Assembly: GCA_050273025.1 (NCBI GenBank)
Contig: CP158635.1
Coordinates: 4,836,001 to 4,900,000 of the forward strand
Source: Cenococcum geophilum
Lineage: Eukaryota
Direction of reading: 5' to 3'
DNA length: 64,000 nt
The notes beneath the pieces were generated by a model. It saw only the letters and a program-made list of their open reading frames with translations. It did no database searches and was not told the DNA's origin. Position 1 is the first letter of the stretch. Each line of letters opens with the position of its first letter. Position numbers and translations under genes: made by a program. Below are positions 5,321 to 64,000 of this stretch, in pieces.

Positions 5321-6996
5321 CATCAGCAAAATGTTTGTGCCTCCTGACAGTACTGACAGCTCCTGACAGCTCCTGTCAGGGCTGTCAGGAGCTCCAGGAG
5401 ACACTCACACTCGGCATCCTGTCAAGAGGTCGCCCGGACCACCAGGACCACTAGGACCTCCAGGACCTCCAGGACCTCCAGGACCATCAGGACCATCAGG
5501 ACCATCAGGACCATTAGGACCATCAGGACAACAATAAAAATTCTACATTTAAAAATTGGGTATATTAACACTCCAGTATTTACCGCTAGTCAAAAAATAC
5601 AAATTTATTTTAATTATATATGATCTAAATAATTCAATCCGCCTACCGCCTGTGTCTGTCATAGGAACTCTACGATCGCTCGGGCGTTGGGCGATCGACT
5701 GAGGAGCCTCTCGCGGAGGCTCCAAATCGTCGATTGGCGATGTTCCCGATGATCCGCTGGCCGTGTGCTGATTTCCTAACTAGGCCTAGTGCCTGCCTGC
5801 CTGCCTGCCTGTCCTACCTGTCCGAGCCTGCTTGTGCCTGCCTGTCTGTATCTGTAATTCGGGGGAGGTCGGCCCGATCGAAGGATCTGCTTGATTCGAT
5901 TGCGATTAATTGTATTAATTCGAATCGCTTTCTATGAGCGTTCGCTGGCTGTACGTTTGAACGGTGGTCGTCTGGGGTGCCTTATTCGGTAACGGGCTGA
6001 TATCGAGGCTCTGGTTCGATTCGATTCGATCGATTGAATTGATCGTCTGGTTCTGGCGACGGTCCTCGCCTACCTGCCTACCTGCCTGCCTACCTACCTA
6101 CCTGCCTGCCTGCCTATGTCAGTATCTAATTCAATTCGGGGGAGGGGTCGGCCCGATTGAAGGCTCTAATTGATCCAGATCGTTCTCTATGGCCGTTCGC
6201 TAGCTGTATATTCGAACGGTGGTCGTCTAGGGTGCCTCCCTAGGAGGCCTTGATTCGATTCGGTGATGGGCCGATATTAAATTTGATCGATCGAATCGTT
6301 CGTGGTATTCGCTGGCTGGTTGTTCGAAAGGTCGTCGTCTAGTTCTGATAACGGTCGTCAGGTTCTGGCAACGGTCGTCTGGTGACGGTAACGGTCGTCT
6401 ACTGGCTGCCGTTCTAGTGTTTCCTAAGGTAGGGAGGATGTAAGGAAGGGTAAAAAATAAGGTGGCTACAAAGGGGGTAACTTGGCAGGGCACGTGTAGG
6501 CTATCGGGAATATAGCGGGGACCCGATAGCACAGTGTGTCGCGCCTGATAGCACTATGTCGCGCGCGCGCACCTAAGGTGTCGCATTAGGGGGGGTGTCG
6601 CATTAGGGGGGTGTTGCTTGAGGGGTATATGCATAGGTGTCGCTTTGGGGGGGGGGGGTGTCGCTTAGGGGTATCCTGCCAGGAACCTGACAGGACGATC
6701 AGGAAATACTAGTTTCCTGTCAGGAGCCTGTCAGGACGATTAGGAAATACTAGTTTCCTGTTAGGACCCTAACAGGACGATCAGGAAATCAAAGATCCTG
6801 GTAGGAGCCTATTAGGACGATTAGGAAATACTAGTTTCCTGTCAGGACCCTGACAGGACGATCAGGAAAATTAAAATCCTGCCAGGAGCCTGCCAGGAGC
6901 CTGCCAGGAGCCTGTTAGGACGATTAGGACCTCCAGGAAAATCAAAATCCTGTCAGGAGGCCTCCAGGATCTTGGCACCCCAACAAAATGCTGATG
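5321..6996. mobile_element. Non-autonomous TIR DNA element with dense subterminal repeats, CACTA/CMC-like
   Basis: Ends are imperfect inverted repeats (left catcagcaaaatgtttgtgcc; right reverse complement catcagcattttgttggggtgcc), flanked by TC on both sides (possible 2-bp TSD). Both ends carry arrays of cctgacagga/caggacca motifs. No transposase motif seen. Confidence 0.6.
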
Positions 6997-7089
6997 TCGT
7001 TAAGATGTCCAGGAACTTTAACCGGCGGTTAAAGTTGTCTAATTAGTTGGATTCTTAAATACTAAGTTTTATTATATAACATTGTTTTA

Positions 7090-9901
7090 GGGTGATGCTA
7101 ATCGGACACCCCCTAATTGCTAGGTGGACACCCCCCCAAATCAGGTTTGGGGCCTGCCTTAATAGGTTAGAATATTACGTGTGTTTGACTTATTTGCATC
7201 TGCATCGCAGAATCGCATCCTCTTCAAAATCTCAACACTATCCTGCCGATAGCCCTTACTACTACCGCCGTGGCTCTTAACGCCGCGCCTATAGCAAATT
7301 ATGACTCAGCAGAGGCAGGAATTAAAGACCTTAATGCCTAAGCAATATTGTAAGGCTTTGCGATAATTATAAAGCGATCCAAAAAGGACAAACAAACTCT
7401 GCTGACTGTACGCAAGCTATAGCTTATATGCGACCGAGGAAAACACTATATACTAGATGCGCGTAGTCGTCGTACTGCCTCTAAGAAGACCGACTGTCCC
7501 TTTAAAGCCACACTATCTTGTATAGAAGTTGGCTGGGTCTATGAGACTTAAGATCCTACTTATAATCACGACGCCTTCTTACCTGGCTCTACACCTCCTG
7601 CGCACCGGTAGCGGTCTGATGAAATAATTAAGACAATTCGCGATTAAGTCGCCAGTAATACGCCTTGCCTATTAATTCTTTTAAATCTTCTGCGAGCTGG
7701 AGTTATAATTGACATAAAAGACATCTATAATAAGAGGCAGGGCTACAAGAAGGAGCTTCTTAATGGGCTTACACCTATATAAGCTGTAACCGACTACGGT
7801 ACCCTGCCAAAACACTACCTTGTCTTACTAGCGTACCACCTTGTTTCAGTTGCCTAGCCCTTGACTCGCTCACCGACTCGGTCTACTTTCGTGTATTTAT
7901 ACCTCTTGATTTCCATAGATTTACAATTAAGTTGCTCGTTCATTCCCACACACTGCAAAGCTTACATAAGCTCTACTAAGAATCCTTAATATATTTGGCG
8001 GCGAGAATCCTAATGCTTATTACTTCTACGCGCATAAGGAAGACGATTAAAACCGACTTAAATATCTATTCTTTGCCTACCTAGAGTTAATTAAGCTTTT
8101 CGAAACTAATTACGATGTAGTTTTGCTTAATTGCACCTACAAAACCAATAGGTTTAAGATGCCGTTCCTCTATATTACTGGTATTATAAGTATAAATACG
8201 AATTTTAAAATAGGATACTGCTTTCTTTCTGGCGAGCAAGAGGTTGATTACCGCTTTCCTATTAAACAGCTCTATTTACTATGCGAACGCCTTAACGTTA
8301 ATATTAAGGTCTTTATTACTAATAAGGAGACGGCACTAAAGAAGGCGCTACGGCTTTACTTTCCACGCGCTCCTTAAATACTCTGCCTATAACACGTAGA
8401 GAAAAACGTTGGTAGTAAGGTAGTAGAGACTTAGAAGAAGCAGGAAGAAGAGGCCCTTACCGTTGCTACTACTGATAAGGAAGTAGAGAAGGTATAGAAC
8501 GATTATAAATCCTTTATGCAGCGCTTCCTTTCCTGCCTGCGGTAGGGGACTGTGTACGAGTTTAATAAAGCTTAGAATAGCCTTCTAGAAGACTACAGCA
8601 ATTAGAAAGATCTTATTAAGTATCTTCGCAAGGAGTAGTGGCCCTTTCGTATGGAAATTGCCGACTACTATGTAGATCTATATCTGCATTTTAGAACTAG
8701 GTAAGTTTTTTTATACAAACTGTAGAGCTTACCTACGCCTTCTACGCGCGAGCTAGATATCCGCCTTTAGATTCTAATTTAGATAATAGAGTTATATTGT
8801 GAGTTGAAGGCGCATATAGTATTTTAAAACGATATTTACAAGTTTCTACTGGCGATCTATTTAACGTCCTTTAGGATGTCGTAAACCTAATTTTAAATAC
8901 TCTTAATAAGTATACTATTTACCTAGGGAATATACAAAGACGCCCGCCGTATAATATTCGACTGCCAGAGCTTTTGGAGCTTATTGGTAAGGTAACGCCT
9001 TAAGGCCTTAGGAAGGTTGTAGAACAGATTAAGCTCGCAAAGTTGCCCAACTATAAGAACACCTATATAGGTAGATTTACAAGCACGTACGGCCTTCCTT
9101 ACTATTATACTTTGTATCGGCAACTATACCGAAGCTCTACTTCTGAGTTAAAAGTCGGCCTTAATGCGATCTATGAGCACTAGCTTTTTAAACGTCCTTA
9201 TTGGAACTCCCCCTATATACCAATCAATCCTATACTACTTATATAAGACCTAGCAGTTATTTAGCGTCGCTACGGTCGTCCTAAAGGCCCTACTAACCCC
9301 CGCAAGCGTGATAACTTAACCCGTTGGGGGCTATTAAGATTTAAGATAGTTGGCAACAATACTGGTGATATAGGATGAGGCCATGGACGTCGGCATGCCC
9401 GCGGAGGCTGTTTATAGACGCTAAAAAGAAGTAGCAGTACCTAATTAAGTTTACGCGTAGCCTTGTAGAGCACTATATAGTCTAATTAGTCAACTCAGGA
9501 ATAGGTTAAGGTTAATTCTAGTGGTGGATATAGTAGTGGAAGTCAAAATACTACTGTAGATGCCTTGCCACCTATTGGCAGCAATATTTAACAGGCTTTA
9601 AGCGGTCAGAGGGCTTTGCCCTTTTAGGTAGACTTTACTAAGGGGTCCTTTAGCGCATTCCAGCTTTAATTTTAACTCTTTTATATATGCTATAGTTAAA
9701 ATTAAGACTTAATTAAGGTGTTGCAGTTATAAAAGTTACATATTAAAAGTTTTAATTTTCGCGATGTAGATGCAAATAAGTCAAACATATATAATATTCT
9801 AACCTATTAAGGCAGGCGCTAAACCTAATTTAGGGGGATGTTTACCTAGCAATTGGGGGGTGTCTACCTAGCAATTAGGGGGTGTCTAATTAGCATCACC
9901 C
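7090..9901 (+). mobile_element. Mutator-like (MULE) DNA transposon, RIP-inactivated
   Basis: ~120-140 bp TIRs (gggtgatgctaat.../...attagcatcaccc); 8-bp TSD ttgtttta at 7082-7089 and 9902-9909. ORF 8123-8377 has MULE DDE motifs (LNCTYKTNRFKMP, FITNKETAL) followed by an LCxWH relic; putative intron starts gtaagt at 8701. Confidence 0.92.
7785..7966. mobile_element. Solo LTR (182 bp) inserted in the MULE transposase
   Basis: TGTAA...TTACA termini; 5-bp TSD taagc at 7780-7784 and 7967-7971. Confidence 0.85.
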
Positions 9902-10177
9902 TTGTTTTAAACCTTTAGTAATACCCCCCTTTCTTCTTTTCTATACCTTAAATGCCCCTTTTATATATATATAGTAATCACAGCGTCGCCAAAGCTCCGC
10001 CTCTATAGAAGGGGGGGTAATGTTATAGAACCCCACTACAGGGGCCTCTATAGGAGAGCCCTGTGCTTTTATATACACCTTATATATAGCTTATATCAGC
10101 TACGCGTAGGTATATTACCTCCTTACGCCCTCAACCCTTATAATTAATCGCGTAACGTCTTATAGACTCCTTAAATA

Positions 10178-13100
10178 TGTAACGGAACCTTATAGCAAGA
10201 ACTATAATAGGCTTATTAATGGGCTAGGTATATAGGTAAAGTAAGTTAAAGTTAACAGTATAATAATAACTGGTGGAGTAGTTGCCTAATAGATTAACGC
10301 TAATTGTATTCTAAGAATTACTATAAAGAAGGAACTATCTAGGTAGGGACTAAGGGTCCTTAAATACACAACCGTACTTCTATAAAATCCTTCTTATAGG
10401 TAATATACGTATACTCTATTTACTTTATTACAAATTATACGGATTATATAGATTATATAGATTACCCTATATAACCTTAGTTACTATTCCTCGTTATATA
10501 GTTCTACTAGTTCTATTCTAGACTATGCCTAAATTAACTAACTAGCTTCTTTCGACTCTTCTCTAAGTAGTTATAATATTATACTTAAAGCGTCCGTAAC
10601 ACTATCTCCCTCCTCTTTATCTTTGTTCTTAAAGATTCTAAATATCTCTAAGTTGTTTACTAGAGGTGTAATATCCGTCTAATTAATTTGGTTAATATTA
10701 TTGCTTATTATACCTAAAGCAATTTCTTTGTCTTTAACTGCTCGTCGTATTCGCACTATTGCTATAATATTATCTCTTAGTGAAATTATACTATCTCCGT
10801 GTTTTTGCTATTTAAAAAAGGGGTTAGTTTATATTATGTTAGCAAACCTATCTTCGTAATAACTGTTCTCTTACTTAGAATGCACTAAAGCGAATATTTG
10901 TTTATCCTATAACGTTCGCTCCGTCTTTAATACTAAATATACGTAACCTATTACTTTTAATAGTTGTCTAGTTCCCTAATTAATTTGTCTTAGGGTCTTA
11001 TATTTAATCTACTACTGCGCAGCTAGATAATAAACTATCTATTACTCTTGCTAAGTTACGCCATTCTTAGGACGCTGAATAAGAGGCTGCCGATACTTAG
11101 TAACGGGCCCTTAAGTCTCATCTTACGGCATTCGCTTAGTTAATTCGTCTTAAGAAGGTTTATAAAAAGGTGCGTTTTAAGGAGTAGAAACTTATAAAAT
11201 AGGGTTTATAGGAACTTAGTAATAAAAGAACGGACTTTCTTCTAACTAAGAAGGAAATAGATCTAAGTAGTTCGGTAACTGCTCTTCTTAGGTCCCCCTT
11301 AGGTAACTTATTCTTTAGTAATTCTTTTTTATTAATGCTTCCTAACCTAATCTCTTTTAATACTCCTATACCTTTCCTATAGCGTTCTTTAAATTTTTTA
11401 GTAGTTTCTAAGTAGTCTTAGTGTAGCCTATCCACTTTATTTCGTACTATATTTTATTATTAATATCCTTATAGCTAACGATCTTTAAAACTTACTATTT
11501 GTCTTCTTCTTATCCTCTATATATGTCTGCTTTATAAACTAGTGGCTTAATATTCCTGTATACTGGCTCTAGTATTACAATATACTATATATGGTAGATC
11601 TTTATTTTGGCTAGTAGGTCTAACTTAAATATAACTAATAAAATCCTTTGCTTAATTTTAAAAGGTCCTAGCCTAATATAGTCCAATTTCTTACTTAGTT
11701 ATTAACTCTTAAAATTTTTATATAGTAGCTATACTTTATCTCCCTCCTTAAGATCTAGTCCCTTGGATCTTTTAGCATTATAGTACTTTTTTATTCTCTT
11801 TTATACTTTCTTTACTAATTCTATAAGGTTTATATAAAGATTTATTAACGTCTTTATTCTTTCTTTAGCTATACTACTTATTTTCTTTACTTACTATAGT
11901 AATAACGATATTCTTAGCTTATATCTATAATTTGCTTTAAATAGTAATATGCCTATTCCTTCTTATAGCGTTATATTATATATAAATTGTATAATTGGTA
12001 ATAGCAATACCTAATTGTTCTATATATAATTAATATAGTATCTTAGATACTATTCTAATGTCTAATTTAGTCTTTCCGTTTAACTATCTATCTGTAGATA
12101 ATATACGGTAGAAGTTACTGCTTTAACTCCTTATTCCGCTAAGAATACCTTTTAAAATGCTGCTATAAATCTTAGATCTCTATCCGATATAATCTTACTT
12201 AGTGCTCTATGTCTTATAAACACTTCCTTAATATAGATTTTAGCGATATCTTCTACTAATATTTCTTCTGTGCATGCTATAAAGTATCCCTACTTTATAA
12301 GCTTGTTTACTATTACTAGGATCGCGTTATAATCCTATCTAGTAATAGGGTCTCTTAACTTTAGCAACTTAATAATAAAGTCCTATAATATAACCTCCTA
12401 TAGTCTCTCTAGTATTTTAATAGGTTATAGCCCTCCGTATGGCTTATACCTTATTAATTTATTTCTTTAGTAATCTAGATATTCCTTTATAACTTTTTAT
12501 ATTAAGCCTTAGATTCTATTAATAATATACTCCTCTTAGAGTCTTAATACTAAGCCCGTGGCTCTGTTATGTCCTTAAGTTATTCCCTTATAGAAATCTT
12601 TTACGAAATGCTCTGTTATGCTTTTTAGGATATACTTAGCTTCTCAATTTTTGTATATATCTATTTATAAATCTTCTAGTTATGCTTTTAGAATTTTTTA
12701 TACCTAAAAGCTCTCTAGTACCTCGTAAACTCTTTCTAGTTCCCCATTTTCCTAAGTTGCTGTAATTTTTAAATAATTATACCTAATTAATCTGTCTATG
12801 TCTTTCCGCAGTAAAGCCCCTAATGGCTTTTTATTATTCTATAGTTTAGCCTTCTAATTTAGAGCATCTGCTTATATATTATCTATACCCTTAATATACT
12901 AAATCTTAAAATAGTATTTTGTAAGTATCTCTGCCTATCTAACCTATCTCTAGTTAAGTTCCTTTATTATTAGAAATCCTATTAGGTTCTTATAATCCGT
13001 CTTAACTATAAATAGTTTCTCTATGCCTTATAAGAATGCTCTCTATTTCTTTAGTGCTGCGACTATACTTAACAACTCCTTATTATAGATGTTATAGTTT

Positions 13101-16100
13101 AACTCTAGTAGTGTTATTTTCCGACTATAATATGCTACTAGGTGCCATCTATCCTAATGTTTTTATATAAAGTATGCCCCTAGTATATAGTCTAATATAT
13201 CTATTTCTATAACCGTTTTTAGTCCTAGTTAATAGATCTTAAAAACTAGCTCCTAGGTAAATAACTCTTTAACTTTTTTAAAGAGTTCTCGCTGTTCCTC
13301 TCCCTATACCTATAGTTCTTCTTTCTTTATTAACCGCGTAAATGGCTTAATATCTTTTAACTATTGCGCTATAAACCTCCTATAGTAATTACAAAACCCT
13401 AAAAACAATCTTAGCTGTATAACGTTCTCTAATTCTTACTAATTTACTATAGCCTTAATCTTTTTTAGATCTATACTAAGTTGGCTTAGTTTAATAATAA
13501 ATCTAACAAAATTGGTCTTCCTAGTAAAAAACTCGCATTTTTTAATTATTACTAGCATCTATTCTTCCTATAGTCTCCTTAAGACCCATTTAACGTATTC
13601 TCCATACTCTTCCTTAGTTATTAAGTAGATAATAATATTGTTAAAGTATACTATAACAAATTTATTTAAGTGTTCTCCTAATATGTTGTTAATACGCTTC
13701 TAGAACATTGCTAATACGTTTATAAGCCTAAATTATATAACTAATAGTTTATATAGTCCTTCCTTTAACCTAAAGGCTACCTTTTATTTGTTGCCTTTCT
13801 TAATCCTAATTTAATAATATGCCTATCTTAAATCTATCTTTATAAAGATTTATATATTGCCTATTCTGTCTTAGATTTTGCTAATTAAGGGTAAAGGATA
13901 CCTATCCTTTCTAGTAATACTATTTAACTATCTATAGTTAATATGTAGTCTTAGTTTAATATTCTTCTTTGGTATAAATAGTACTAGATAACCCGCTAAT
14001 AACTGCGATAGTCTAATATATCCCTTTTATAAGTTTTCTTAAATAAACTCTTTTAGCGCTCTACCTTCTTCTTTAGTAAGCTTATAGATTGGAAAGAACC
14101 TTAGACTTATTCCTAGTTCTAATTCTATTTTATAGTCCTATACTATATACTCTAACAGCTTCTCGCTTTTTAGTAACTATAGTTTCTTGCTATACTTATA
14201 GTATTTCTTTAGTACGTAACTTAGTCCTTTTTCTATTTCTTTATAGATCGCCCCTACTTAGTACTATACCATCTTAGCTTATTATTACATTTTGCGTTAT
14301 TAAGTATCCCTAATATTAACCTAACCTATAACCTAATCGATCTTTAGATTATATTCCTATAACTAAGGTATCTCTAATACTGCCTTATTATTTCCTAATA
14401 GTAATATATTAAAAGACATCTTAATTTATCTCCCTTTAATAGTTAACTATATAGGTCTGGTTTTAAGATTAATAATACCTCCTCCATAGGCTATCGGATC
14501 TCCTAAAATTGTCACTAATAGGTAAGGATACTCCTTTTTCCTATGTGGTAATCCTATTCTTTTAACTGCTGCTAGTAAGATATAGTTCCTTATTACTCCA
14601 CTATCTATTAATACTTTAAACTACTAATCTTACCATTTAGCTCGTAAATTTAGGTGTTATCCTTAAATTCCTTTAAGGGTTTAAGGCTCTACTACTAGTT
14701 CCCTCTAGTCCTATAGGCCTCTACTTTTCCCAACTATTAGCTGCTTAATTCTATTTATACTTAGTCTACCTTTAGCTAATACTTAGTTCGCTTTTTATCT
14801 TTAATATATTATAGACATATATTTTTTAGGCATTCCTACTACTATTATCCATCTAGGTATTCTTCCGTAAGGAATCTTCCTAGCTAAAGTATTAAGTTAC
14901 CTAACTCCTAAACTTCTACTAGATGCCAGCTATACATATACTTAGCGTTTTAATACCTTTATTCTTTTACTAACTAATATATTCTTATAGGGTATTTCCA
15001 ATATTTATCTTTTGGTGCTCTGTATATATTATATATATTATTTACGCATATAATCTATACTAATATATAATATACTTAGTGCTTTAAGTTAACTCTTAGT
15101 TTATCTTTATCCTTAAGTTTAAACCTTTATTATATTAATCTAAACGTTGCAACTTTATTTACAGGTACTAAGATACGCCTCTTGCTTTTCTAGTCCTCTA
15201 AATACTCCTCTAGATCTTTTAATATTATAATTAAGGCTCCCTTAATATGACTTATCGCTTTTTCTATAATCGGGTGGTCTTAGATAACATTCTTGTTTAA
15301 CCACATATAGAAATCTTCCTACTTATTATTATGCCTTTACCTATACCACTTTTAGTATAGCTGCTAGAGTATATACGGTTTATTTATAAGGAAGTATCTT
15401 CTTATTACTACGTCGTAACAGCCCTTTATATATCGTTTCTTAAACCTAGTTAAAATCCCTAAATCCTCTTCTTATTCTAGTTTAGTAAGCCACTTAGCTC
15501 TTAGTATGCCTGCTTTAGGCCTATTAGTAATTCTTTATACTAGTGCTCTATCCCTTATACGTCCTAATATGCTAGATCTCTTATCTAGTTTCTATTCTTA
15601 CCATAAGGTAATCCTTACTCTAAACTCCTCTATAGTTTCTTTCTTTTCGCGTCTTATAAGCGGATCCTTAAAGTCTTCTTACTTCTTAATCTTAGTATTA
15701 GTCTTCCAATCTTTAGGCTAAATGCTGTGTTCCCCTAGTAGGTCCTCTAGGTCTATCTATCTATCTCCTAGTCTAATTGCTATTTATACCGCAGATTCTC
15801 TAATCTAGTTAATGGTTCTTATTTATGTCTTAAAGTCTTAGTTCTATAGGATTCTTAATCCCAAGCTTACTTCTAACTTAAGCTTTACCCTAGCCTTAGT
15901 CCAACTAGGCTTACTTAGTATTCTTATCTCGTCTTAAGAGTCTTAAATCTTACTTATCTTATCTTAAGAGTCTTATACCTATAGGAAACTCTATCCTAAG
16001 CTTATTTATATATCTTTAAACTAAGCTACTACCCTACTCTATTAGTTTCTATCCGTTATGGGTCCTTAGGTTTACCTTATCTTGTCTTAAGAATCTTAGT

Positions 16101-18127
16101 CGTCTTTTATCTCATCTTAAGAGTCTTAAGCCTTTGGCTTCTTGCCTTTATTAAGTACTAAAGTGGCTCGCTATCCTACTTCTCTTATATCTCGTGAAGT
16201 AATAGACATTGTATCTAGCGGGGTCTTAATCCCTACTAATATTCCCTATTCTATAGTGGAATTATCCTCTACCTCTATTATAACATCTTTAAGGTCTATA
16301 TACTCCTAATAAGCTGCTTTCATTGCCTTATTATTATAGAATGTTTCGCCTACGTTAAATTTATCGTCCTTAATATCCGATCTATAAACTAGTTTATTAG
16401 TCCCTTTATATTCTAAGGATTATAGCTCCTATAGCCAATAGCTTGCGCTATACTTAGCGTCTTTATAAATTTAGTATGCGTTATTATAATAAAACGTAAA
16501 ACTTCTAATTAAACACTCTTTTGTTCCTTATAGTATACTATCGCCCCTCTATACGTATATATCTTTTACTAGTTAGGTTCCCTTTATTATATAGTAACTC
16601 TAACTATCTTTATAATCCCTTGCGAAATAACCCTATTTTCCGCAATTTATATAAGCTCTATTTTTAAACTATTAACTTTGCTATAGAGTCCGCCTAAACG
16701 TCTTCTACTACTAAGATCCCTAGTTTAGCCTCTACTCCTTAGTCCTATAATTACTAGATCCTTAACCTTTAGGTTTTTACGGTTTCTTACTCCATCTCTT
16801 ATAGGCTTCTTTAGTACCACTTAGGTCTATTAGCTCTACGCTATACTATAGTTTCTAACTTAGCTTTAGTTAATGCGTACTCTACGCCTTATACAACTAT
16901 AGAACTCTATTCTAACCTTTTTTAGCCTATTCCCTTTAGTAAATCTAATTGTTAATCTTAATTACCTAATCTATTAAATCCCTTAGGGTATCCGTATCTT
17001 CCATTAGGATAATTACGTCCTAGACTTTAGCCTTAAGTCCCTACTTATACTATGCTATAAGCGCCTTATTATTCCACTTAACTTATATTGCTAGCGTTTA
17101 GAACTATATTATATACTTAATTACTAAGGTTTACTGCGTAATATCCTAGAGTTTTCTTTCCGCTATAGTTACTGCCTCTAGGTCTCTAAACATTTACATA
17201 AGTTACTCTATAAACCCTTCCTAGCTTAAAAACATAAACTACACCTCTTAATTAGTGGTTGTTATTCCATTTACCTATATTTCTATAAGGTAAAGCTTAA
17301 ACTACTTAAGTGCCCTTCTTAACAGGAATAGTCCTATATAGGCTATTCGATCTATAGGTGTTAGTAGCTTTACCCCTTCTTACGTAACCTTAAAGTGCAT
17401 TTATATAAGGAATCCTTTAAGCTTTAATCTTTCTCTTAAGTACCTTTTAATTAATAGTAACTTAATCCTTACCGCACCTATCCTATTAACCCTTTTTTCC
17501 ATTACTACATTATTAGCCATTAACTAGTCGATTATCTCTTATAGCTGTCCGACCGTTACAGGTTATTAAGAATTAGTGTCCGCTATACTGGTATCTCCTC
17601 CTGACCTTAAAGTAGTTGCTGCCGTCGATAGCGTTATAGTAGCTGCTTTTGGTGGCATATTATTTGACTTTTTATACTTATTACCGTAACTAGGTAGTGA
17701 TTATATAACGGAACTTTATAGCAAGAACTACAGTAGGCTTATTAATGGGCTAGGTGTATAGGTAAAGTAAGTTAAAGTTAACAGTGTAATAATAATTGGT
17801 GGAGTGGTTACCTAATAGATTAACTCTAATTGTATTCTAAGAATTACTACAAAGAAGGAACTATCTAGGTAGGGACTAAGGGTCCTTAAATACACAACCG
17901 TACTCCTATAAAATCCTTCTTATACGTAATATACGTGTGCTCTATCTGCTCTGTTACGGATTACACGGATCGTATAGATTATATAGATTACCCTACGTGA
18001 CCTCAGTTACCATTCCTCGTTATATAGTTCTACCGGTTCTATCCTAGACTGTACCTGAATTAACTAACTAGCTTCTTCCGACTCTTCTCTAAGTAGTCGT
18101 AACATTGTACTTAAAGCGTCCGTAATA
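10178..18127 (-). mobile_element. Full-length Gypsy LTR retrotransposon family 'B', copy B1, RIP-degraded; LTRs 10178-10601 and 17704-18127
   Basis: Two 424-bp direct repeats; 5-bp TSD aaata; purine tract on the minus strand next to 10601; minus-strand gag (MPPKAA start near 17659), RT, RNase H, integrase and chromodomain relics; colinear with B2 and B3. Confidence 0.95.
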
Positions 18128-36159: not shown

Positions 36160-37405
36160 ATGGATCCGCTAAGCGCGCTAGGTCTGGCCTCGAACATCGT
36201 CCAGCTTGTCCAATTCATCGGTGTAGTAATATCGGACAGTCATGAAGTATACTCCTCCGCGGATGGGGCGCTCCAAAGAAATTATGCGCTGGAAGAGGTG
36301 GCCTGCACGATTGGTCAGAGAAGGAGCTGGCAAAGGTTTTTAAGAAATTGATATTAGACAATTCTTTGCGGCTGGCCTTCTTTATTGACGGGCTGGATGA
36401 ATTCAATGGAAACCACGAGGAGCTCGTACAGCTTATTATCTCGCAAAGACTCTGAACGTCAAATTCTGCTGCGCTAGCCGTCCGTGGCTTGTATTTGAAG
36501 ACGCATTTGAGGGTCGACCGAGCGTCCTACTCGAAAGGTTGACTCAGGGAGATATCACACGCTACGTCTTGGATAAGTTCGAGCAGAACAAGCGTTACGC
36601 TAAGCTAAAAATCCGACGACCAGATCTCTCTAAACTTGTGGATGAAGTTGTAGAAAAGGCCAACGGCGTGTTCCTTTGGGTGTACCTCGTTGTAAAGTCT
36701 TTGTTAGAAGGGCTCAGAGATTCAGATAGGGTTTGTGATCTACAGAAACGCCTGGACAGCCTGCCATCCGACCTCCAAGAATTGTTTGATAGATTGTTGG
36801 AACGTCTCGACACTTTTTACTTCAGGCACGCCTGCCAACTGATTAGGATTGTTCGAGCTGCGAGCATTCCACTTACGGTTCTCGTCATGTCATTCGCAGA
36901 CGAAGATAATCGTAAAGCCGCTATCAGAGCCAAAGTGAAAGCATTGACGAAAACCGGCGTAGCGGATAGAGAGGATGAAATAAGGCGCAGATTGAACAGC
37001 CGCTCCAAGGGTCTCATTGAAGTGTCGGAGAGTAAGAAAGTCCAGATCCTCCACAGGACTGTCAAAGATTTCATCGACACACTGCGCAACTGGACAAAGA
37101 TTGTCAAAGCAGCTAGAGAGTTCTTTGATCCAGTTTTTATGCCGTGCAGCGCCTATTTATTCAAAATAAAGACGGTGAACCCCGACCACCCAGACCGCCG
37201 GCAAGACGCCTTCAAGGCCCTTATCGAATACGCTATTGAAATCCAAGGGGCCAAAGGTACAGCGCCCATCGCTATCCCGGACGAGGCCGATCGAGAGACG
37301 AAACATATAACGACAAAACACTATAATGCCGTCTCCCGCGCTCTGAAGTACCGCTTTGAGAAGTTGGGCAAGTCCAGTGTGGTTTTGGATGATGCGAATA
37401 AGTGA
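36160..37405 (+). pseudogene. Internally deleted and frameshifted NACHT/STAND (fungal NLR-like) gene relic
   Basis: N-terminus MDPLSALGLASNIVQLVQF is typical of fungal STAND N-terminal domains. About 200 nt later come Walker B (LAFFIDGLDEF), a frameshift, KFCCASRPWLVFEDAF and KANGVFLWVYLVV. No Walker A is visible. Confidence 0.75.
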
Positions 37406-37474
37406 GCATAAAACATCCTTATCCAATAGAAAATACATAAAATATCGCAATCGATAAGGATAAAAGTGTCCGTG

Positions 37475-54536: not shown

Positions 54537-55039
54537 CCTAAGCCCCAGCTCTATATAGTACCCTAAAATAGATAGTTAAACTAAGATTGTTAATATAGCA
54601 ATAAATAAGTACCTATACGCCTTTATAAGCTTTACCTAAGATAACTAGGTAGATTGGCTCCCCCTTACTAAGTTTACTATAAATAACTAGGTTAATAAGA
54701 CTATGGAAATCTTACTATTCTTTGCCAACTATAGCTATAACCTATATCTAAGTATTAAACTAGTAGGCCCCTAGCTATTAGCCCTATTTATATATATAAA
54801 GAAGGAGTACCTATAAGCTAATACTATTACTAACCGCTTTAAGCGCATCTTAACCTAGCTTAAAGCCCTAGCTTATATCTCCTAGCGACGCTATAAAGAC
54901 AATACTAATATAAAATAAGATAAGGGTATAATATTTAAAAAGGATAATATAGTTATAGTTAGCCTTAAAAATATAAAGACTAACCAGCCTAAGAGGAAGT
55001 GGGATAATAATTAGGACGGACCCTAGCCCGTCCTAGCTA

Positions 55040-55386
55040 CAGTCGAAACTCTTTAGTACGATATTTAATTACAACGATATACTCTATATTACGATCTACA
55101 CCCCTTAATTAAATTTTTTTTAGTGTAATATTACGATATACTAACTATTTATAATATCGTTAAGTTTTCTCTAACCAAATCGTTATAACCAGTAGAGGTT
55201 TTGTATGGAAGGGGTCCTACTTAGCCCGTAAAGTAGATGCCCTACGCCCTTTTAGGATGCTTAGCCACGCGTCAGCCTTCTTTTTCTTGCTTATTAACCT
55301 AACACGTGACTCCATGTATAACAATACCATTAGTATTACGATACGGTCGGCCGTACGACCCGCATCGTTATAAAGAGTTTTGACTA
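55040..55386. mobile_element. pogo/Tc1-mariner-type MITE, related to the 57060 element
   Basis: TIR cagtcgaaactcttta / taaagagttttgacta with TA on both sides; first ~140 bp closely match 57060-57170. Confidence 0.85.
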
Positions 55387-55941
55387 TACCTATAAAAAAG
55401 CAGTTATAGTTAACCTTCTAAACTATATTTATGTTAATAAGTCTTTCTATACTTTAAAAGTCCGCCTCTAGTTTTCTAAAAAGATCTCTAGTTAAGTATA
55501 TATTAACAAAGAGGAATATTATAATATTATAGATAGGATAGCTAAAAGGGATAATAACGGTAATATTACGGATAAGTAGGAATTTAAAAAGATCCTTAAT
55601 ATATATAATAAATAAATAGACAAGCACGGCTTAATATATTATATTAAGTGGAAGTATTATAATAAGGAAACCTAGAAACCTAAAAAATCCCTAAAAGGGT
55701 GTAAGCGCGCACTACTAAAGTTTTATAAATAATACCCTAAGAAGCTAAGACCCCTAGACTAAGTATAAAATAAGGGAGAGTTACGCTAAAACTATAGCCG
55801 ACCATAAAGATAATTTATAGTGGTTAAGATCTTATAGAACTTTAACCATTGGTTAAAGTTATCTAATTAGTTGGTTTTTGTGCCAAGAAGCGCTATATAG
55901 TAGCGGTGTAAAGTTCTACTAACTTTATTTATTAAACTAAT

Positions 55942-56201
55942 TATAAGGCAGTATTGCCAGGGTATACGGTAGGGAGCAGGCAAGCCGAGCATGAGTCACA
56001 TAGGAAGTCGATGGAAGAGGACGATATGGTAATGAGGGTAGGCAATAGCCTCGTACGGAGACGAACCGATGGGGGAGGAAGGAGGCTGCAAGCCTGAGGA
56101 GCTTATAAGGAGGTGCCAAGCCTAGCCTTCGGCTAGGCCTTGGCTACCCCTTAGAGCTCCTAAGCAATGCAGCCGAGTAAGGGACCAAAAGTACCCTTAC
56201 A
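55942..56201. mobile_element. Solo LTR (260 bp) in the 3' UTR of D
   Basis: tataagg (RIP of TGTAAGG)...ccttaca termini; 5-bp TSD ctaat at 55937-55941 and 56202-56206; GC-richer than its host. Confidence 0.8.
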
Positions 56202-57059
56202 CTAATTAATTAGGATTTTCTACATTTGGTATAGAAAATTGCTATTAGCTTAATTAAGAGCAGTAAGCAGAAGTAATATCTTTATAGTAAAATTAAGTTA
56301 CTTATTTGGTTTAGGGACTAAACCTTTTAGGGAGGGGAGTACTATTACGGCACTAACTTAACGCATACTATTTTATACTATCTTATACTATCTTATACTA
56401 TTTCCTACTATTAGCTAGTCTACTACTAGCGCCTTAGCGGCTGGCCCTACTATTTATATACAATATCCCCTTTCACCTTCTTCTCCTCTTTATACCATAA
56501 CGTAGTTATTTAGTCTACTTTATTACAGTACCGTAACACTAGTTAAGAGGATTAGGAACGATATTGTTTTACTTATTACTATTATTAAAGCGGATCTTAA
56601 TAAGCTTAAGCCCTACGTTGTAGTAGCGGTTAAGCTTATTAGCGAGCTTAATACGCTTTTAATTGCGCTTTAAGGAAGTAAGGCTCTTATCTATAACTAA
56701 GGACTGTATATATTTATTAACTAAATCATTAGATTTATAAGGAATCTTTCTATATTATAGCTTAGCTGGTTCCTTATCTTCCTTATCTACTTACTTATTA
56801 ATATAGTTATTAAATAAAGTCTCTATATATTGCTTAGTGTACTTCTACTATAAGGGCTACCGTTTCTACTTATCGCGAAAGTAGGCGCGTTTAAGAGATA
56901 GATAAAGGATTACTATAGCAAAATAGTAAGGGCTCTTAGCCTTTATTTTATTAAAATATTTATTAATATTTTAGATAGTTATATTAACGCCTAATTTAAG
57001 AAAGGAGTTGTATTTATTTTTAAGGCTCTACTAAATCCGCTAGAGGATTTAATAGAGTA

Positions 57060-58862
57060 CAGTAAAAACTCTTTATATACTCTATATTATAATCTATACC
57101 CCTTAATTAAAAAAATTTTGGTGTAATATTACGATATACTAACTATTAATAATAATATTAAGTTTTCTCTACTAGAATTAGTATAGCTAGTATTTTATAG
57201 AGCTAATCTAGTGTTTCCTCACCGCTAGTTTAGCTATTAATACTTATATATAACGATTAAATTCTATTAAAATAGCCTTTAAATCCTACTCTTTATACTT
57301 AATTTTACCTCTTTAATATGGCAAGAAGCCAAAATCCTAAAAGGCGTTATTACTACGGTATTTCTAACTATAAGCGCTAGAAGATCCGTAGCTACTAACG
57401 CAAGTACCCTAACCTTATACAAAAACACCTTATAATTTAGGCTACCAATACCTTCCGCTATAAGTTTAATTAATCTTTAATATCTAAAATACTTAGCGGT
57501 AAGTTTAGCTACCTAGATTTAATTAGAATCTATTATAGATAAGGTATATATAAGCGTAGAAGAGACGCTAAACAGCCTCTCTTAGAGGAGGCTCTCTTTA
57601 AGTAATACTAACGCCTATAGAACTTACGCATTCCTATTATAAGCGATCTTATTTATGCTATCGCAAGTTAATTATAGAATTGTATACCTATATTAGCAGA
57701 GCTACTAAAGCCTAAGTAGTTAATTGGCTAGTTAGAAAGCTTTAAATTTTATAATGGAATCTATAAGAGAAAGTAGTACGGCAAGGCTACGTCGGTTAAT
57801 ATAGAAGGCGCTAAAGATCGCATAATAGAGCTTTATATAGTTGTCGCGCCTTATCCTTTAAAGGATGTTTATAATATAGATAAGACTAGGCTATTTTAGA
57901 AGGCTATACTAGATACTATACTAACTACTAAGTTATAATTAGGAACCAAGAAGTAAAAGGTAAAACTCTCTTTTACTAACTACTTTAATATAGATAGCTC
58001 TAATAAGATCCCCCTCTAGATTATTAATATATTAATACGGCTATATTACTTTACCTAAGCTTAAATTAATATTAACCTGTTAAATGTATATTAGAGGTAT
58101 AATAAGAAGGCCTAGATAACGACTATAATTATACTTAAGTAGCTTACTTAGTTTAATAAGAGGATGTAGAACAAGAAGGTTCTTCTATTAATTAACGGCT
58201 TTAGCGCTTACTAAGTGGCTGTTTAAACAGCTCTTAAAAACAAATCTTTAAAGAATATAAAAGTTAAGTTCCTTCCTCCTAATTATACATCTGTTTACCA
58301 GCCACTTAATTAAGGGATAATTGTAAACTTTAAAGCTCTCTACTAATAATATTAGCTATAGTTTATAGTAGAACACTTATTAGAGAATCAGGATCCAATT
58401 AAGCAGATACACGTCCTTTAGGCGATTTAATAGGCAATTACTGCTTAGAAAAAGGTAACACTATAGGTAATTAAGAGTTGCTTTATTAAATCTACCTTAT
58501 TTAGTATAAGAGAGGGCCTATAAAGTCGCCCTTATAATTATATTAATCCTCCCGTTCTAAATAAGATATAGTAGAATAGTAGAATAGTTATATATAGTAG
58601 GAAGAGTTCGTAATATCATAAATATTTATAATTTTATTAAGCTTCTAGGTAAGGAGGTAGAGGATTTAACTAAAGATCTTATTAAGCACGTAGTAAAGCT
58701 CTATGTGAGGCCTAATAGAAATGCAGAAATAGATAAGGACGACTTTATATAACCTTAAATTAAGGTTAATAAGGCCTTACAAGCCTTATAAAAGCTTTAT
58801 CTCTATAAGGAATAACAGGAAGACGGTAATAGAGACTTAATTATAGCTCTTATAAGGCACGA
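57060..58862 (+). mobile_element. pogo/Tigger-like (CENP-B HTH + DDE_1) DNA transposon, RIP-degraded, interrupted by B3
   Basis: TA-cagt start; motifs VYNIDKTRLF (VYNMDETGLF), NKKA*IT, KVLLLINGFSAY, FLPPNYTSVYQPLN*GII. Confidence 0.9.
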
Positions 58863-61800
58863 TGTAACGGAACCTTATAGCAAGAACTACGATGGGTTCG
58901 TCAATAGGCTAGGTGTATAGGAAATGCAAGTACAAAAGTCAATAACGTAATAACAACTGGTGGAGTGGTTGCCTAACAGATTAACTCTAATTATATTCTA
59001 AGAATTACTACAAGGAAGGAACTATCTAGGTAGGGACTAAGGGTCCTTAAATACACAACTATACTTCTAAGAAAGTTGTTACTCTATCTACTCTATCTAC
59101 TCTACTTACTCTATAATAGATCTTATAGATTACACAGATTATATAGATCACATTATATGACTCTACTTACTATTCCTTATTATATGGTTTTACGGGTTCT
59201 ATTCTAAACTATACCTATATTAACCAACTAGCTTCTTTTAACTCTTCTCTAAGTAGTTATAATATTATACTTAAAGCATCCGTAATACTATCTCCCTCCT
59301 CTTTATCTTCGTCCTTAAAGATACCTAGTATCTTTAGGTTATTTACTAGAGGTATAATATCCGTCTAATTAATTTAGTTAATATTATTACTCATAATACC
59401 TAAAGCATCCTCTCTTTCTTCTATAGCTCGCCGGTCTTATACCGTTACTATAATATTATCTCTTAGTAAAATAATACCATCTCCGTGTTCTTATTATGCG
59501 AAAGAGGGGTTAGTCTATATTACGTTAATAAGTCCTTTATCTTAATAACCTTCCTCTTACTTAGAGTGCACTAAAGTAAACGTTTAATTATCTTGCGATA
59601 TACGCTCTATTTCTAACACTAAGTGTGCGCGTCCTATAACTCTTAGTAGTCTTTAAGTTCCCTAGGTAATTTATTATAGGGTCTTGTGTTTAATTTAAGG
59701 TAGAAAAACTTAAGGGCGATCTTGCCGCAGCGCTAGCGGAAGCCTATCGTCGTTCTAAAGAATCTACTTATGCCCTTAAGGCTTAGCAGTCTGCCTTTAT
59801 AAAAGTTTAATATCTTTAACATGTTCGTAAGAAGGTCCATTCTAAGAAATAAAAACTTATAGAATAAGGTCTATAGAAACTAGGTAATAAAAAAACGGAT
59901 TCTCCTCTAACAGAGAAGGAAATAGATCTAAGTAGTTCGGCAACTACTCTTCTTAGGTCCCCCTTAGGTAACTTATTCTTTAGCGATCTTTCTTTATTAA
60001 TGCTGCCTGACCTAATCTCCTTTGATACTCCTATACCTTTCCTATAGCGTTCTTTAAATTCTCTAGTAGCTCCTAGGTAGTCTTAGTGTAGCCTATCTAC
60101 TTTACTTTATACTATATTTTATTATTAATATCCTTATAACTAACAACCTTTAAAACTTACTATTTGTCTTCTTCCTACCCTCTATACGTGTCTGCTTTAT
60201 AAACTAGTGGCTTAATATTCCTATATACTAGCTCTAGCATTGCGATATACTATATAGGGTAGATCTTTATTTTAGCTAGTAGGTTTAACTTAAATATAAC
60301 CGGTGAAATCCTCTATATAATTTTAAAAGGTCCTAGTCTAATATAGTCCAATTTCTTACTTAGTCGTTAACTCTTAAAATTTTTGTATAGTAGCTATACT
60401 TTATCTCCCTCCTTAAGATCTAGTCCCTTAGATCTCTTAGTATTATAGTACTTTTTTATTCTCTCTTATACTTTCTTTACTAATTCTATAAGGTCTATAT
60501 AAAGATTTATTAATGTCTTTATTCTCTCTTTAGCTATACTACTCGTTTTCTTTACTTACTATAGTAATAATAATATTCTCGGCTTATATCTATAATTTGC
60601 CTTAAATAGTAATATGCCTATTCCTTCTTAAGGTATTACATTATATACAAACTATATAACTAGTAATAGCGATACTTAATTGTTTTATACATAATTAATA
60701 TAATGCCTTAGATACTGTTCTAGCGTCTAATTTAACCTTTCTATTTAACCGTCTGTCTACGGATAATATGCGGTAGAAGTTGCTACTTAAACTCCTTGCT
60801 CCGCTAAGAATACTTCCTAAAATACTGCTATAAATCTTAGATCTCTATCCGATATAATCTTACTTAGTACTCTATATCTTATAAATACTTCTTTAATATA
60901 GATTCTAGCAATATCTTCCGCTAAGATTTCTTCTATACATGCTATAAAGTATCCCTACTTTATAAGCTTATCTACTATTACTAAGATCGCGTTATAATCT
61001 TATCCGGTAATAGGATCTTTTAATTTTAGCAACTTAATAATAAAGTCCCATAATATAACCTCCTATAGTCTCTCTAGTATTTTAACAGATTATAGCCCTC
61101 TATATAGCTTATGCCTTATTAATTTATTCCTTTAGTAATCTAGATACTCCTTTATAACCTTTCTAGCTATCCTCTAGATTCTATCAATAATGTACTCCTC
61201 CTAAAGTCTTAACACTAAGTTTATAGCTCTATTATGTCCTTAAGTTAGTCCCTTATAGAAGTCCTCTATAAACTACTCTACTATACTTCTTAGAATATAC
61301 TTTACTTCCTAATTTTTATATATATCCGTCTATAGATCTTCTAGCTATACTTCTAGAATTCTTTATACCTAAAAGCTTTCTAGTATCTTATAGACTTTCT
61401 CTAGTTTATTATCTTCTTAAGTTGCTATAATTTTTAGATAATTATACCTAATTAATTTGTCTATATCTTTTCGTAATAAAGCCCCTAATAGCTTTTCCTT
61501 ATTTTATAGTTTAGCTTTACGGCTTAGAGTATCTGCCCACGTATTATCTATACCTTTAGTATACTAAATCTTAAAATAGTATTCCGTAAGCATCTCTACC
61601 CATCTAACCTATCTTTAGTTAAGTTCCTTTATTATTAGAAATCCTATTAAGTTCTTATAATCTATCTTAACTATAAATAGTTTCTCTATACCTTATAAAA
61701 ATACTCTCTATTTCTTTAATACTGTAACTATACCTAATAACTCCTTATTATAGATGTTATAGTTTAACTCTAGTAGTATTATCTTCCAACTATAATATGC

Positions 61801-63134
61801 CACTAGGTGCCATCTATCTTAATGCCTTTATATAAAGTACGCCCCTAGTATATAGTCTAATATATCTATTTCTATAACCGTCTCTAGTCCTAGTTAATAG
61901 ATCTTAAAAACTAGCTCCTAGGTAAACAACTCTTTAACTTTTTTAAAGAGTTTTCTTTACTCCTCCCCCTATACTTATAGTTCTTCTTTCTTTATTAACC
62001 GCGTAAATAGCTTAATATCCTTTAACTACTGCGCTATAAACCTTCTATAGTAATTACAAAATCCTAAGAACAATCTTAACTATATAACGTTCTCTAGTTC
62101 CTACTAATTTACTATAGCCTTAATCTTCTTTAGATCTATACTAAGTTAGCCTAGTTTAATAATAAATCTAATAAAATCGGTCTTCCTAGTAAAGAACTTA
62201 TATTTCTTAATTGCTACTAGTATCTATTCTTCTTATAGTCTCTTTAAAACCTATTTAACGTATTCCCTATATTCTTCCTTAGTTATTAAGTAGATAATAA
62301 TATCGTTAAAATATACTATAACAAATTTATCTAAGTATTCTCCTAATATATTATTAATACGCTTTTAGAATATTGCTAGTGCGTTTATAAGCCCGAATTA
62401 TATAACTAATGGTTTATATAATCCTTCCTTTAACTTAAAGGCTGCCTTCTATTCGTTACCTTCCTTAATCCTAATCTAATAGTACGCCTATCTTAGATCT
62501 ATCTTTATGAAGATTTACACATTACCTATCCTATCTTAGATTTCGCTAATTAAGGGTAAAGGATACCTATCCTTTTTAGTAATACTATTTAACTATCTAT
62601 AGTTAATACACAGCCTTAGTTTACTATTCTTCTTTAGTACGAATAGTACTGGATAACCCGCTAATAACTGCGATAGTCTAATATATCCCTTTTATAGATT
62701 TTCCTAAATAAACTCTTTTAACGCTCTACCCTCTTCTTTAGTAAGCTTATAGATTGGAAAGAACTTTAGACTTATTCCTAGTTCTAACTCTATTTTATAG
62801 TCCTATACTATATATTCTAATAGCTTTTTACTTTCCGGTGACTATAGTTTCTTACTATACTTTTAGTATCTCTTTAGTATATAGCTTAGTCCTTTTTCTA
62901 TTTCTTTATAGGTTGCTCCTACTTAGTACTATACCAACTTAGCTTATTATTATATCTTACGGCATTAAGTATCTCTAATATTAACCTAACCTATAATCCA
63001 ATTAATCCTTAAATTATATTCCTATAACCAAGGTATACCTAATACTGCCTCGTCCCGTCCTAATAGTAGGATATTAAAAGACATCTTAATTTATCTTTCT
63101 TTAATAGTTATCTAAATAGGTCCTGTTTTAAGAT
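58863..63134 (-). mobile_element. Gypsy family B copy B3 (3' LTR 58863-59287 and pol), interrupted by a Copia element
   Basis: LTR matches B1/B2 LTRs; 59288-63134 is colinear with B1 10602-14470. Confidence 0.93.
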
Positions 63135-64000
63135 TGTTGGACTTATAAGGGGATATTACGTAGCTACGGTTCGTAGATAGTATGATGATTATTGTTCTTA
63201 TATTCTTGAAGAAAGGGGTAAGGAACTTAAGGTTCCTCACCACGCTAGTGCCGCGGCGGCACGTGATGGCAACTTGCTATACGTGACGGCAATATGCCTT
63301 ATATGGTGACCATTTGCCTTTATTCCCAACACTAGCAACTCTTCTTTTATGGTTGCCATCTATATATATATACCGCTTAACTAGCGGAACAAAAATTAAT
63401 CCTCTTTACTTACTATTGCCATTATAATATAAGTCTCGCTGTCCTAAAATTTGCCTCTTAACACGTGGTGCTTTCTTGCTTATAAGTTATAGGTAGGTAT
63501 CTTATCAGTAGGGCCGCCAAGGCGCTAGCGGTAAGCGAGCCAATAGCGATTTTCTATCCTAGGGATGGAAAATCCTAATTAGCTAGTTTGAGTTAGGGTC
63601 TGCAGAATCTAACTAATTAGATAACTTCGACCGCCGGTCGAAGTTCCTGGACATCTTAAGACCTCACGTGACTAAGAAATTTCTAGGGACTCCCTTTTAA
63701 CCCAACCTTTAACTTATATATGTAGAGTATTTATGTTAACAAACGTCTCTAGTGCCTTATTTGGGTTCGCCTTCGTTATTACATCTACTAGGTTATCTTA
63801 GCCATTAATCCATTAAATCTTAAAGAGTTTTTAATGCTTGTAGGATTGCTGAAGTGCTATAATATCAATTATAAGGCGCTTCTCCTTCGTGGTACCGAGC
63901 TTAACTAAATACTTATAGAGGGAAAATAAATCGGTGTATACGATTGTAGGGATAACGGGAAGTTTAAGTCGATCTATAATTATCTTTAGGGTAGTTCCAA
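63135..64000 (-). mobile_element. Copia/Ty1 LTR retrotransposon 'E', 3' end (3' LTR 63135-63331, RNase H end)
   Basis: TGTTGG...CCAACA LTR; minus-strand translation IPTIVYTDLFSLYKYLVKLGTTKEKRLIIDIIALQQSY...WING*DNLVDVITK, the fungal Copia RNase H signature. Confidence 0.9.

Follow-up and report, generated by a model that had tools for sequence, protein, structure and literature searches.

A modular palindromic cassette between pol and the polypurine tract, shared by Copia and Gypsy retrotransposons of a Cenococcum geophilum contig

RESULTS

A common cassette at three sites of the window

A 64,000-nt stretch of the Cenococcum geophilum contig CP158635.1 (the window) was mapped by self-comparison, Pfam and tblastn, and three of its long terminal repeat (LTR) retrotransposons, one Copia (E) and two Gypsy elements (A and D), were found to carry a common cassette. 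This is a modular, non-coding set of dyad-symmetric units in the stretch that separates the pol stop from the polypurine tract, and it occurs in many LTR-retrotransposon families. Briefly, three units can be told apart: P0, a CACGTG-centred palindrome; P1, an odd palindrome of 23 nt, after which come an inverted CCAAT-like motif and a GCCAAG motif; and P3, an optional 27-nt odd palindrome with inverted CCAAT pentamers on its flanks. Whereas the units themselves are conserved, neither the length nor the sequence of the intervening spacers is constant. In an alignment tolerant of repeat-induced point mutation (RIP), E, A and D share a block of ~60-70 nt (block 1), and E and D share a further one of ~60 nt (block 2; 63592-63530 on the minus strand in E, 56196-56257 in D) that includes a third hairpin and the motif GCTATTRGCT; the window copy of A has no block 2 in this alignment.

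The P1 pattern (AACTTYRACCNNNGGTYRAAGTT, up to two mismatches) has exactly three matches in the window (7014-7036, 55838-55860 and 63623-63645), against a mean of 0.00 and a maximum of 0 in 100 dinucleotide-preserving shuffles. The tail pattern RTCTAATTAGTTRG (CTAATTAG-type) matches the same three places, with a shuffle mean of 0.66 and three matches reached in 3 of the 100 shuffles, so that the tail alone is weak evidence. In all three elements the module lies in element sense, downstream of the pol homology and upstream of the purine tract and LTR start. A first-pass annotation of the window had described one module shared by a Copia and two Gypsy elements, placed after the pol stop and ahead of the polypurine tract and continued in E and D by a second stem, a third hairpin and GCTATTRGCT, and had expected CCAAT boxes to emerge once RIP was reversed. 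All of this was recovered here, the last point in that less RIP-mutated copies and a de-RIP consensus contain the CCAAT pentamers CTAATTGG, CCAATTAG and GCTATTGG (in a few cases CTGATTGG or CCAATCAG).

Copia E runs on the minus strand from 64000 down to 63136 and is inserted in a Gypsy B copy that ends at 63135. Its pol end corresponds to residues 1535-1637 (the last 103) of P0001, with homology ending at 63690, and P0 (63663..63672) comes directly after the first in-frame stop (63674-63672). Block 1 (63604..63666) is made up of a conserved left flank, P1 (63623-63645) and RTCTAATTAGTTAGAT, which is the small hairpin 2 or inverted CCAAT-like motif. Block 2 (63530..63592, type I, see below) contains the CTAATTAG partner of stem 2, P3 (63548-63574) and GCTATTGGCT, and the element closes with a purine tract (~63348-63339) and the 3' LTR (63331-63136). 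A member of the E family retrieved 46 homologues (E <=0.001), most with PF07727 (RVT_2) and some with PF00665; a direct Pfam search with a RIP-mutated copy of the family gave no hit. The translation, read by eye, follows the order integrase, reverse transcriptase and RNase H, with a QTDD-type reverse transcriptase and an ADxxTK-type RNase H end, and in a family member CTAATTAGT, the 9-mer of the GalEa 'conserved hairpin site', stands directly after the 5' LTR. Judged by these sequence features, element E is a GalEa-type Copia.

Gypsy A (1436-5318, plus strand, from tblastn, with RVT_1 and RT_RNaseH by Pfam) carries block 1 only, at 6992..7058 (P1 7014-7036). The end of its pol (~5318) is divided from the module by a private, GC-rich and tandem-repeat-rich insertion of 1.67 kb (5323..6990, plus); in other copies of the A family, which are without this insertion, the module follows directly after the pol end. 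The insertion is apparently un-RIPped, begins with CATCAGCA and ends in the inverse of CATCAGCA, is rich in CCTGTCAGG-type palindromes and in 9-bp and ~280-bp tandem repeats, and one of its frames reads as a collagen-like PGP repeat (a weak Pfam match, below the cut-off). A DNA transposon is nested in the 3' untranslated region (UTR) of A (7083..9911), with terminal inverted repeats of ~100 bp (88% alike) and an 8-bp target duplication, TTGTTTTA; the purine tract and LTR start of A (~10010-10022, plus) lie beyond it.

Gypsy D, also on the plus strand, was located by tblastn in two parts (44513-46603 and 54511-55834) that are split by a nested Gypsy B copy. Its LTRs are at 41038-41233 and 56343-56538 (3' LTR), with the purine tract at 56328-56341, block 1 at 55822..55878 (P1 55838-55860) and a type I block 2 at 56196..56257 (P3 56214-56240). 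Between the blocks lies a private, GC-rich TG..CA insertion resembling a solo LTR (55955..56199, plus), with a size of ~245-266 bp. The first-pass annotation had removed a solo LTR from the long loop in D, and the long gap is indeed a private insertion; P3 follows block 1 after 343 nt in the window and after 77-98 nt in other D-like copies. Gypsy B, with copies at 10172..18127 (minus), 46590-54537 (plus) and 58862-63135 (minus), served as a cassette-free control family; its pol is on the strand opposite to that given by the first alignment.

Two further parts of the window lie apart from these elements. A remnant of a pogo/Tc1-like transposase is present at ~57360-58490 (plus), with DDE_1 (E 1e-21) and a CENP-B-type N-terminal helix-turn-helix (E 3e-5), and the region 24000-38000, between RIP-mutated repeat blocks, is GC-normal (45-50% GC) and presumably contains ordinary genes.

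Distribution among retrotransposon families

Metagenome contigs were scanned with a pattern of P1 plus tail in which only transitions were allowed (~46 bits). The scan gave at least 128 loci and, together with the window, at least 134 non-redundant instances; the fractions given below are counted among the 134 listed instances. None of the 128 listed loci matches the window at >=95%, hence they are copies other than those of the window and may not come from the same species. Clustering led to six upstream groups plus singletons and, when both flanks were used, to nine subfamilies of at least three copies (sub0 to sub8). The carriers are one GalEa-type Copia (E, sub5, recognized by its homologues) and five Gypsy groups defined by upstream sequence, in at least nine subfamilies, so that the sharing between Copia and Gypsy claimed for the window is far broader among the listed instances. 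RVT_1, RT_RNaseH, Integrase_H2C2 and SH3_Tf2-1 were identified by Pfam in c0 (sub1 and sub3) and c3 (sub2), and the assignment of A, c0 and c3 to Gypsy, a superfamily with the order RVT_1, RNase H and integrase, follows from their Pfam domains. The remaining groups, c1 (sub0, D-like), c2 (sub4, A-like, and sub6) and c5 (sub7 and sub8), were assigned to Gypsy by tblastn with read-through translations of representatives, their domains being recognized by eye and not by Pfam.

By tblastn, the pol end was found upstream of the module in sense in 101 instances, in antisense in 8 and in both in 7; the 18 instances without a call mostly have flanks of 300 bp, are known family members, or are the window copy of A, where the insertion explains the result. 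Since the queries include same-family read-through translations, the distances to the pol end are inflated. Per subfamily, the module comes after the pol end in 29/29 copies of sub0, 17/17 of sub2, 13/13 of sub5 and 14/15 of sub4, the exception being the window copy of A with its private insertion; for c0 there are 29 strict cases and two scored as degenerate, one of which resembles a block-lacking copy. These counts are biased upward because the DNA was sampled for having the module, and the same holds for the check proposed in the first-pass annotation, namely that other copies of A, D and E should have the module, which they do (sub4, sub0 and sub5, respectively). On the downstream side, the module of c0, c2, E and c5 stands 118-320 nt ahead of the 3' LTR, as judged from LTR pairs, with the boundary between polypurine tract and LTR observed for representatives only. 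The P0 motif (in its RIP form TTACGTAA) is found just upstream of block 1 in five of the nine subfamily consensuses (sub1, 3, 4, 5 and 6), and also in sub8.

Orientation, modularity and exchange

An element has one P1 and at most one P3, both outside the LTR. Block 1 alone is present in sub1, sub4, sub7 and sub8, while block 2 has two mutually reverse-complementary forms, type I in sub0, sub5 and sub6 and type II in sub2 and sub3; the spacing from block 1 to P3 ranges among subfamilies from 37 to 98 nt. In the 17 copies of the Gypsy subfamily sub2 the whole cassette is inverted, and this subfamily, together with a relative (L024), makes up the antisense set. On one side of the module, sub2 copies have a sharp homology edge at 392-400 nt, and on the other homology extends over more than 3 kb, with the Gypsy pol on the strand opposite to module sense. 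Along the element's own sense, an A/G run comes after the inverted cassette, and then an LTR that starts with TGTTAGG and ends with ATAACA, and which is repeated in L041. It follows that the position between pol and purine tract is kept and the orientation is not. The first-pass annotation had the module always in element sense; this is true of the three window copies, but fails for the inverted cassettes of sub2 and for block 2, which occurs in both orientations relative to block 1. The sub2 loci (e.g., L072 and L071) also have a ~127-bp tandem duplication at +190 to +425 in module sense, where it separates the inverted cassette from the pol end, and the sub2 LTR contains two GCACGTGC palindromes.

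Several carriers have a mosaic 3' UTR. The pol end of sub8 is c5-like (51/62 identical to sub7), but in the 45 nt before P1 it matches Copia E at 42/45 positions, versus 28/47 for sub7, and afterwards becomes c5-like again. Sub1 and sub3 agree in pol end and LTR, but a segment of ~130 nt with block 2 sets them apart. Two forms exist within the E family: P3 lies at +38 in the short one, represented by the window E and four others, and at +70 to +79 in the six copies of the long one, whose extra piece resembles a c5-type purine tract and LTR start. Homology between families begins close to or at the pol stop, no more than 14-45 nt ahead of P1, and its edges are ragged, being variable also after P1, with the palindromes internal and not at the termini. 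A contig joint from 63608 to 63689, skipping 80 nt (P0 and block 1), weakly hints at E-like copies that have no block 1, the sides of the joint being 21-32 nt long. From these mosaic structures we infer that units were exchanged between families, including between Copia and Gypsy, by recombination. Of the earlier suggestion of a small hitch-hiking element moving between retrotransposons, the movement agrees with the mosaics; an ordinary miniature inverted-repeat transposable element (MITE) does not fit, as no solitary copy was identified among the listed instances, of which 18 had too short a flank or gave no call.

Symmetry and folding

P1 has 1231 Watson-Crick, 45 G:U and 64 mismatched pairs in 1340 cells, and P3 has 855, 56 and 77, respectively, in 988 cells; both are thus self-complementary sequences in the genomic RNA. 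The centre base is free (G or C) in both odd palindromes. In P1 it is of G-type in 82 and of C-type in 52 instances, with both states within most subfamilies. A frequent flip-flop of the P1 centre is unsupported: the states mostly follow sub-lineages, nearest neighbours having a common centre in 24/27, 15/17 and 9/9 cases and less so in 13/19 and 7/14.

P3, which is outside the scan pattern, is present as a 27-mer in 76 of the 134 listed instances, a looser length rule giving 77. At pair 11/17, 44 of the 76 have C:G, 32 have G:C and none is asymmetric, with both states occurring within sub0, sub2 and sub3. This double transversion, kept symmetric, cannot be made by RIP; either the symmetry is selected or whole units were swapped. 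We also considered changes from CG to TA in both arms of P1 as a sign of compensatory selection and rejected them, since the two arms of a palindrome offer RIP an identical context and such changes are uninformative.

In folding, the two-block cassettes are more stable than their shuffles, with z-scores of -3.2 for E in sense and -4.7 in antisense, and of -4.8 and -3.9 for the others, while block 1 alone gave -2.3 and -1.35. The minimum free energy fold has three stems in all three two-block cassettes, in agreement with the multi-hairpin structure drawn in the first-pass annotation.

Transcription data over the window

One RNA run and three DNA contig sets were mapped on 54538-64000 at 90% likeness. 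RNA reads fell almost only on the GC-rich insertion of Gypsy D (~55952-56036), and 372 of the 378 reads lay only partly on the stretch. As the reads on the insertion are partial and 90-95% alike, related copies elsewhere seem to be transcribed.

DISCUSSION

What the cassette may do

We tentatively favour the explanation that the cassette is an exchangeable cis-element which would act as RNA hairpins or as dimer-linkage palindromes, and confidence in the RNA level of this putative function is low. Action in RNA is favoured because every full-length transcript would include the cassette, which is built of perfect palindromes and is distant from the 5' promoter. In the genomic RNA, the cassette would form stable hairpins or self-complementary palindromes of the dimer-linkage type, and its inversion would be tolerated since a palindrome reads alike both ways. 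Exchange would take place most simply through template switching of the reverse transcriptase between co-packaged RNAs, or else through gene conversion between integrated copies, with the shared palindromes and microhomology as crossover points. A perfect palindrome could pair with its like on a second RNA of any family, and such pairing would favour the co-packaging of unlike RNAs, itself driving exchange and accounting for its concentration at this place. Taken to its end, the cassette would be a promiscuous dimer-linkage module through which Copia and Gypsy RNAs pair, co-package and recombine, a self-spreading recombination hub that joins the superfamilies; we regard this extension as unlikely.

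A number of observations weigh against an action in RNA. The three window copies of Gypsy B have neither P1 nor P3 by pattern scan and by alignment, so at least one family does without the cassette. In type II, where block 2 is inverted, the long-range stem 2 has ~5 bp instead of 8 bp and the CCAAT pentamers persist; the persistence of these pentamers and of the CACGTG palindrome where the long-range RNA stem is lost fits a reading as DNA sequence motifs better. The conservation of P1 across families is partly a matter of ascertainment, because the scan pattern allowed only transitions. G:U pairs and mismatches show no RNA-strand bias (45 versus 64 in P1, 56 versus 77 in P3), and the test lends no support since the copies are dead and RIP-mutated. 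The lone covarying pair of P3 could go back to a single event that recombination then spread, or to palindrome-templated correction, and not to selection for RNA pairing. RNA reads over the module bins are at ~1x and uninformative on expression, and all cassette copies seen are RIP-mutated, so that any need for the cassette in an active element is hypothetical. Moreover, the palindromes known to mediate dimerization are 6 nt long and reside in the 5' leader/UTR or gag region, as far as the available text of the source goes (PMC11381356).

The same symmetry could serve at the DNA level, as a protein-binding cassette whose putative dimeric host-protein sites would act on the integrated element or the cDNA, with roles in transcription, replication, chromatin state or the targeting of integration, and we give this a limited chance. 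The candidate factors, which we take to be the CCAAT-binding complex at CCAAT, a basic helix-loop-helix protein at CACGTG and a zinc-cluster protein at the CCG-N-CGG core of P1, would suit several of the findings: the whole cassette and block 2 are independent of orientation, the CCAAT pentamers are kept in both orientations of block 2 and the long-range RNA stem is not, and a free centre base in both odd palindromes is what is expected of a dyad site. The location is less favourable, as 5-6 kb separate the cassette, which is outside the LTR, from the promoter in the 5' LTR upstream of it, and we know of no upstream activating sites in fungi that work from such a position. Perfect dyads of 23 and 27 nt also exceed typical factor sites, and the symmetric swap between G:C and C:G in P3, with both states in one pool, is awkward for a single sequence-specific protein. 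A regulatory reading has a precedent in Sireviruses, where palindromic LTR motifs with a CGG-CCG core were taken as likely regulatory (PMC2829016). Present data fit either RNA- or DNA-level action, and the interpretation in the first-pass annotation, which had named both besides a hitch-hiking element, is partly supported overall.

It is also conceivable, if rather doubtful, that the cassette has no function and merely hitch-hikes, the spacer between pol and polypurine tract being the only internal site to tolerate extra sequence, and the palindromes acting as recombination hot spots that supply homology and at which reverse transcriptase pauses, so that they would be copied among families with no benefit to the element. 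Mosaic UTRs, presence/absence variants, variable orientation and a family without cassette (Gypsy B) are what such a passenger would produce, as are the switch of the P1 centre between G and C inside most subfamilies, though mostly by sub-lineage, and the E-like copies without P0 and block 1 to which the contig joints with their short sides weakly point. It is harder to see why the blocks should then stay conserved and symmetric while the spacers diverge, and why five Gypsy groups and one Copia should have gained or kept the cassette after nearly every pol end, in a sample selected for the module. Independent insertion of an ordinary small DNA element (a MITE, a Helitron end or another transposon terminus) in each retrotransposon would account for the presence of both orientations, and P1 followed ~5 nt later by CTRR-T presumably resembles the 3' end of a Helitron, but this origin is most improbable. 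Many copies with differing flanks have the module as a component of their family sequence, interfamily homology starts shortly before P1, and no solitary copy was identified among the 134 listed instances, 18 of which have flanks too short or no call; in four copies of the L005 type, without pol nearby, a common stretch of ~180 bp runs up to a TGT..ACA start that is LTR-like. The cassette edges showed no terminal inverted repeats in the sequences read, and target duplications were not searched for there. Finally, chance or RIP-driven convergence of AT-rich sequence, to which only the near-chance frequency of the CTAATTAG-type tail in the window would lend itself, can be considered refuted, given the absence of P1 from the shuffles, the number of loci found with a ~46-bit pattern and the co-conservation of P3 outside that pattern.

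Copia and Gypsy are treated as separate lineages without common non-coding parts, and here a cassette is common to both, with mosaic junctions. If functional, it would be a cis-signal serving very different retroelements in one host, either as a device for RNA-RNA pairing or as a host-factor site, and if it spread by co-packaging of RNA, sequence exchange among unlike retroelements would be much freer than assumed. In annotation, the cassette offers a short and specific marker of the spacer between pol and polypurine tract in heavily RIP-mutated fungal repeats.

Comparison with known systems

A full-text literature search, with the GalEa supplementary files outside its range, returned no description of a cassette common to Copia and Gypsy. 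The Rfam check put forward in the first-pass annotation came out negative for the window region 63300-63800 on both strands: its three matches scored 18-20 bits against gathering thresholds of 50-76, and no family reached its threshold. Among retroviruses, 3' transport/stability elements such as the constitutive transport element are structured, symmetric RNAs between the last open reading frame and the 3' LTR that recruit a host factor, and the constitutive transport element has been acquired by unrelated retroelements. The cassette is without sequence or Rfam similarity to it and is alike in site and symmetry.

The closest relation by lineage is GalEa elements' Conserved Hairpin Site (CHS), a palindromic 9-mer (CTGATCAGT / CTAATTAGT) with a hairpin in the non-coding RNA, an 'extended CHS' being conserved between different families of one species (PMC5445492). 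The CHS adjoins the 5' LTR in place of the primer-binding site, its CHSeq1 is palindromic with the last A of the LTR, and in the available text of that source it is given for GalEa-type Copia elements only (PMC5445492). Element E belongs to this kind and has its true CHS at its 5' LTR end; the cassette differs in that it comes after pol, measures 60-150 nt, lies before the 3' LTR at the distances given above and is common to Gypsy families, and no CHS was seen in the 5' leaders of the Gypsy carriers. The 9-mer CTAATTAGT is also found in the block 1 tail of the window, where less mutated copies read CTAATTGGT or CTGATTGGT, so that the identity may be due to RIP convergence. Apart from this common 9-mer, the 5' hairpin site of E and the cassette have only a loose resemblance.

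Some 5' ends in the sampled loci are worth recording beside this comparison. In L064 (module-sense -5333), as well as in a second element of L064 and L003, an LTR ending in ..ACA is directly succeeded by CTAATTAGT, CTGATTAGT or CTAATCAGT and then AGTTAA; these GalEa-type 5' ends match the published CHS in the position of the primer-binding site. The leaders of sub1/sub3 and sub6 (L019, L033, L001 and L077) have TTACGTTRCG right after the 5' LTR and no obvious tRNA-type primer site, and its occurrence in two unrelated Gypsy groups may represent a self-priming arrangement.

Short palindromes mediate dimerization of genomic RNA in Ty3 (PAL6/DS), Ty1 (PAL1/PAL2) and HIV-1 (DIS) (PMC11381356; PMC6844567). 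As with these, the cassette palindromes are self-complementary sequences in genomic RNA; the known ones are exposed on hairpins and, as described in the available parts of these sources, need no family-specific protein. In contrast, the cassette palindromes, at 23 and 27 nt, form stems themselves and are located in the 3' UTR.

Conserved non-coding motifs in single lineages, such as the GalEa CHS and the Sirevirus motifs, are already known, as are chimeras made by template switching. Sireviruses, which are plant Copia elements, have highly conserved, dyad-symmetric non-coding motifs whose core is CGG-CCG, as well as a conserved inverted repeat where polypurine tract and 3' LTR join, read by the authors as cis-regulatory (Bousios et al. 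2010, PMC2829016). These belong to one genus and occur in many copies inside the LTR (a few on the env side); the available text of that study has them neither crossing superfamilies nor linked with evidence of lateral exchange. Mosaic elements made by recombination during reverse transcription, as proposed here for the cassette, have been described as template-switch chimeras (Sabot and Schulman 2007, PMC1950507). In the available text of that work they are complex insertions of LTR-sharing elements, unlike the small module crossing between Copia and Gypsy described in this study.

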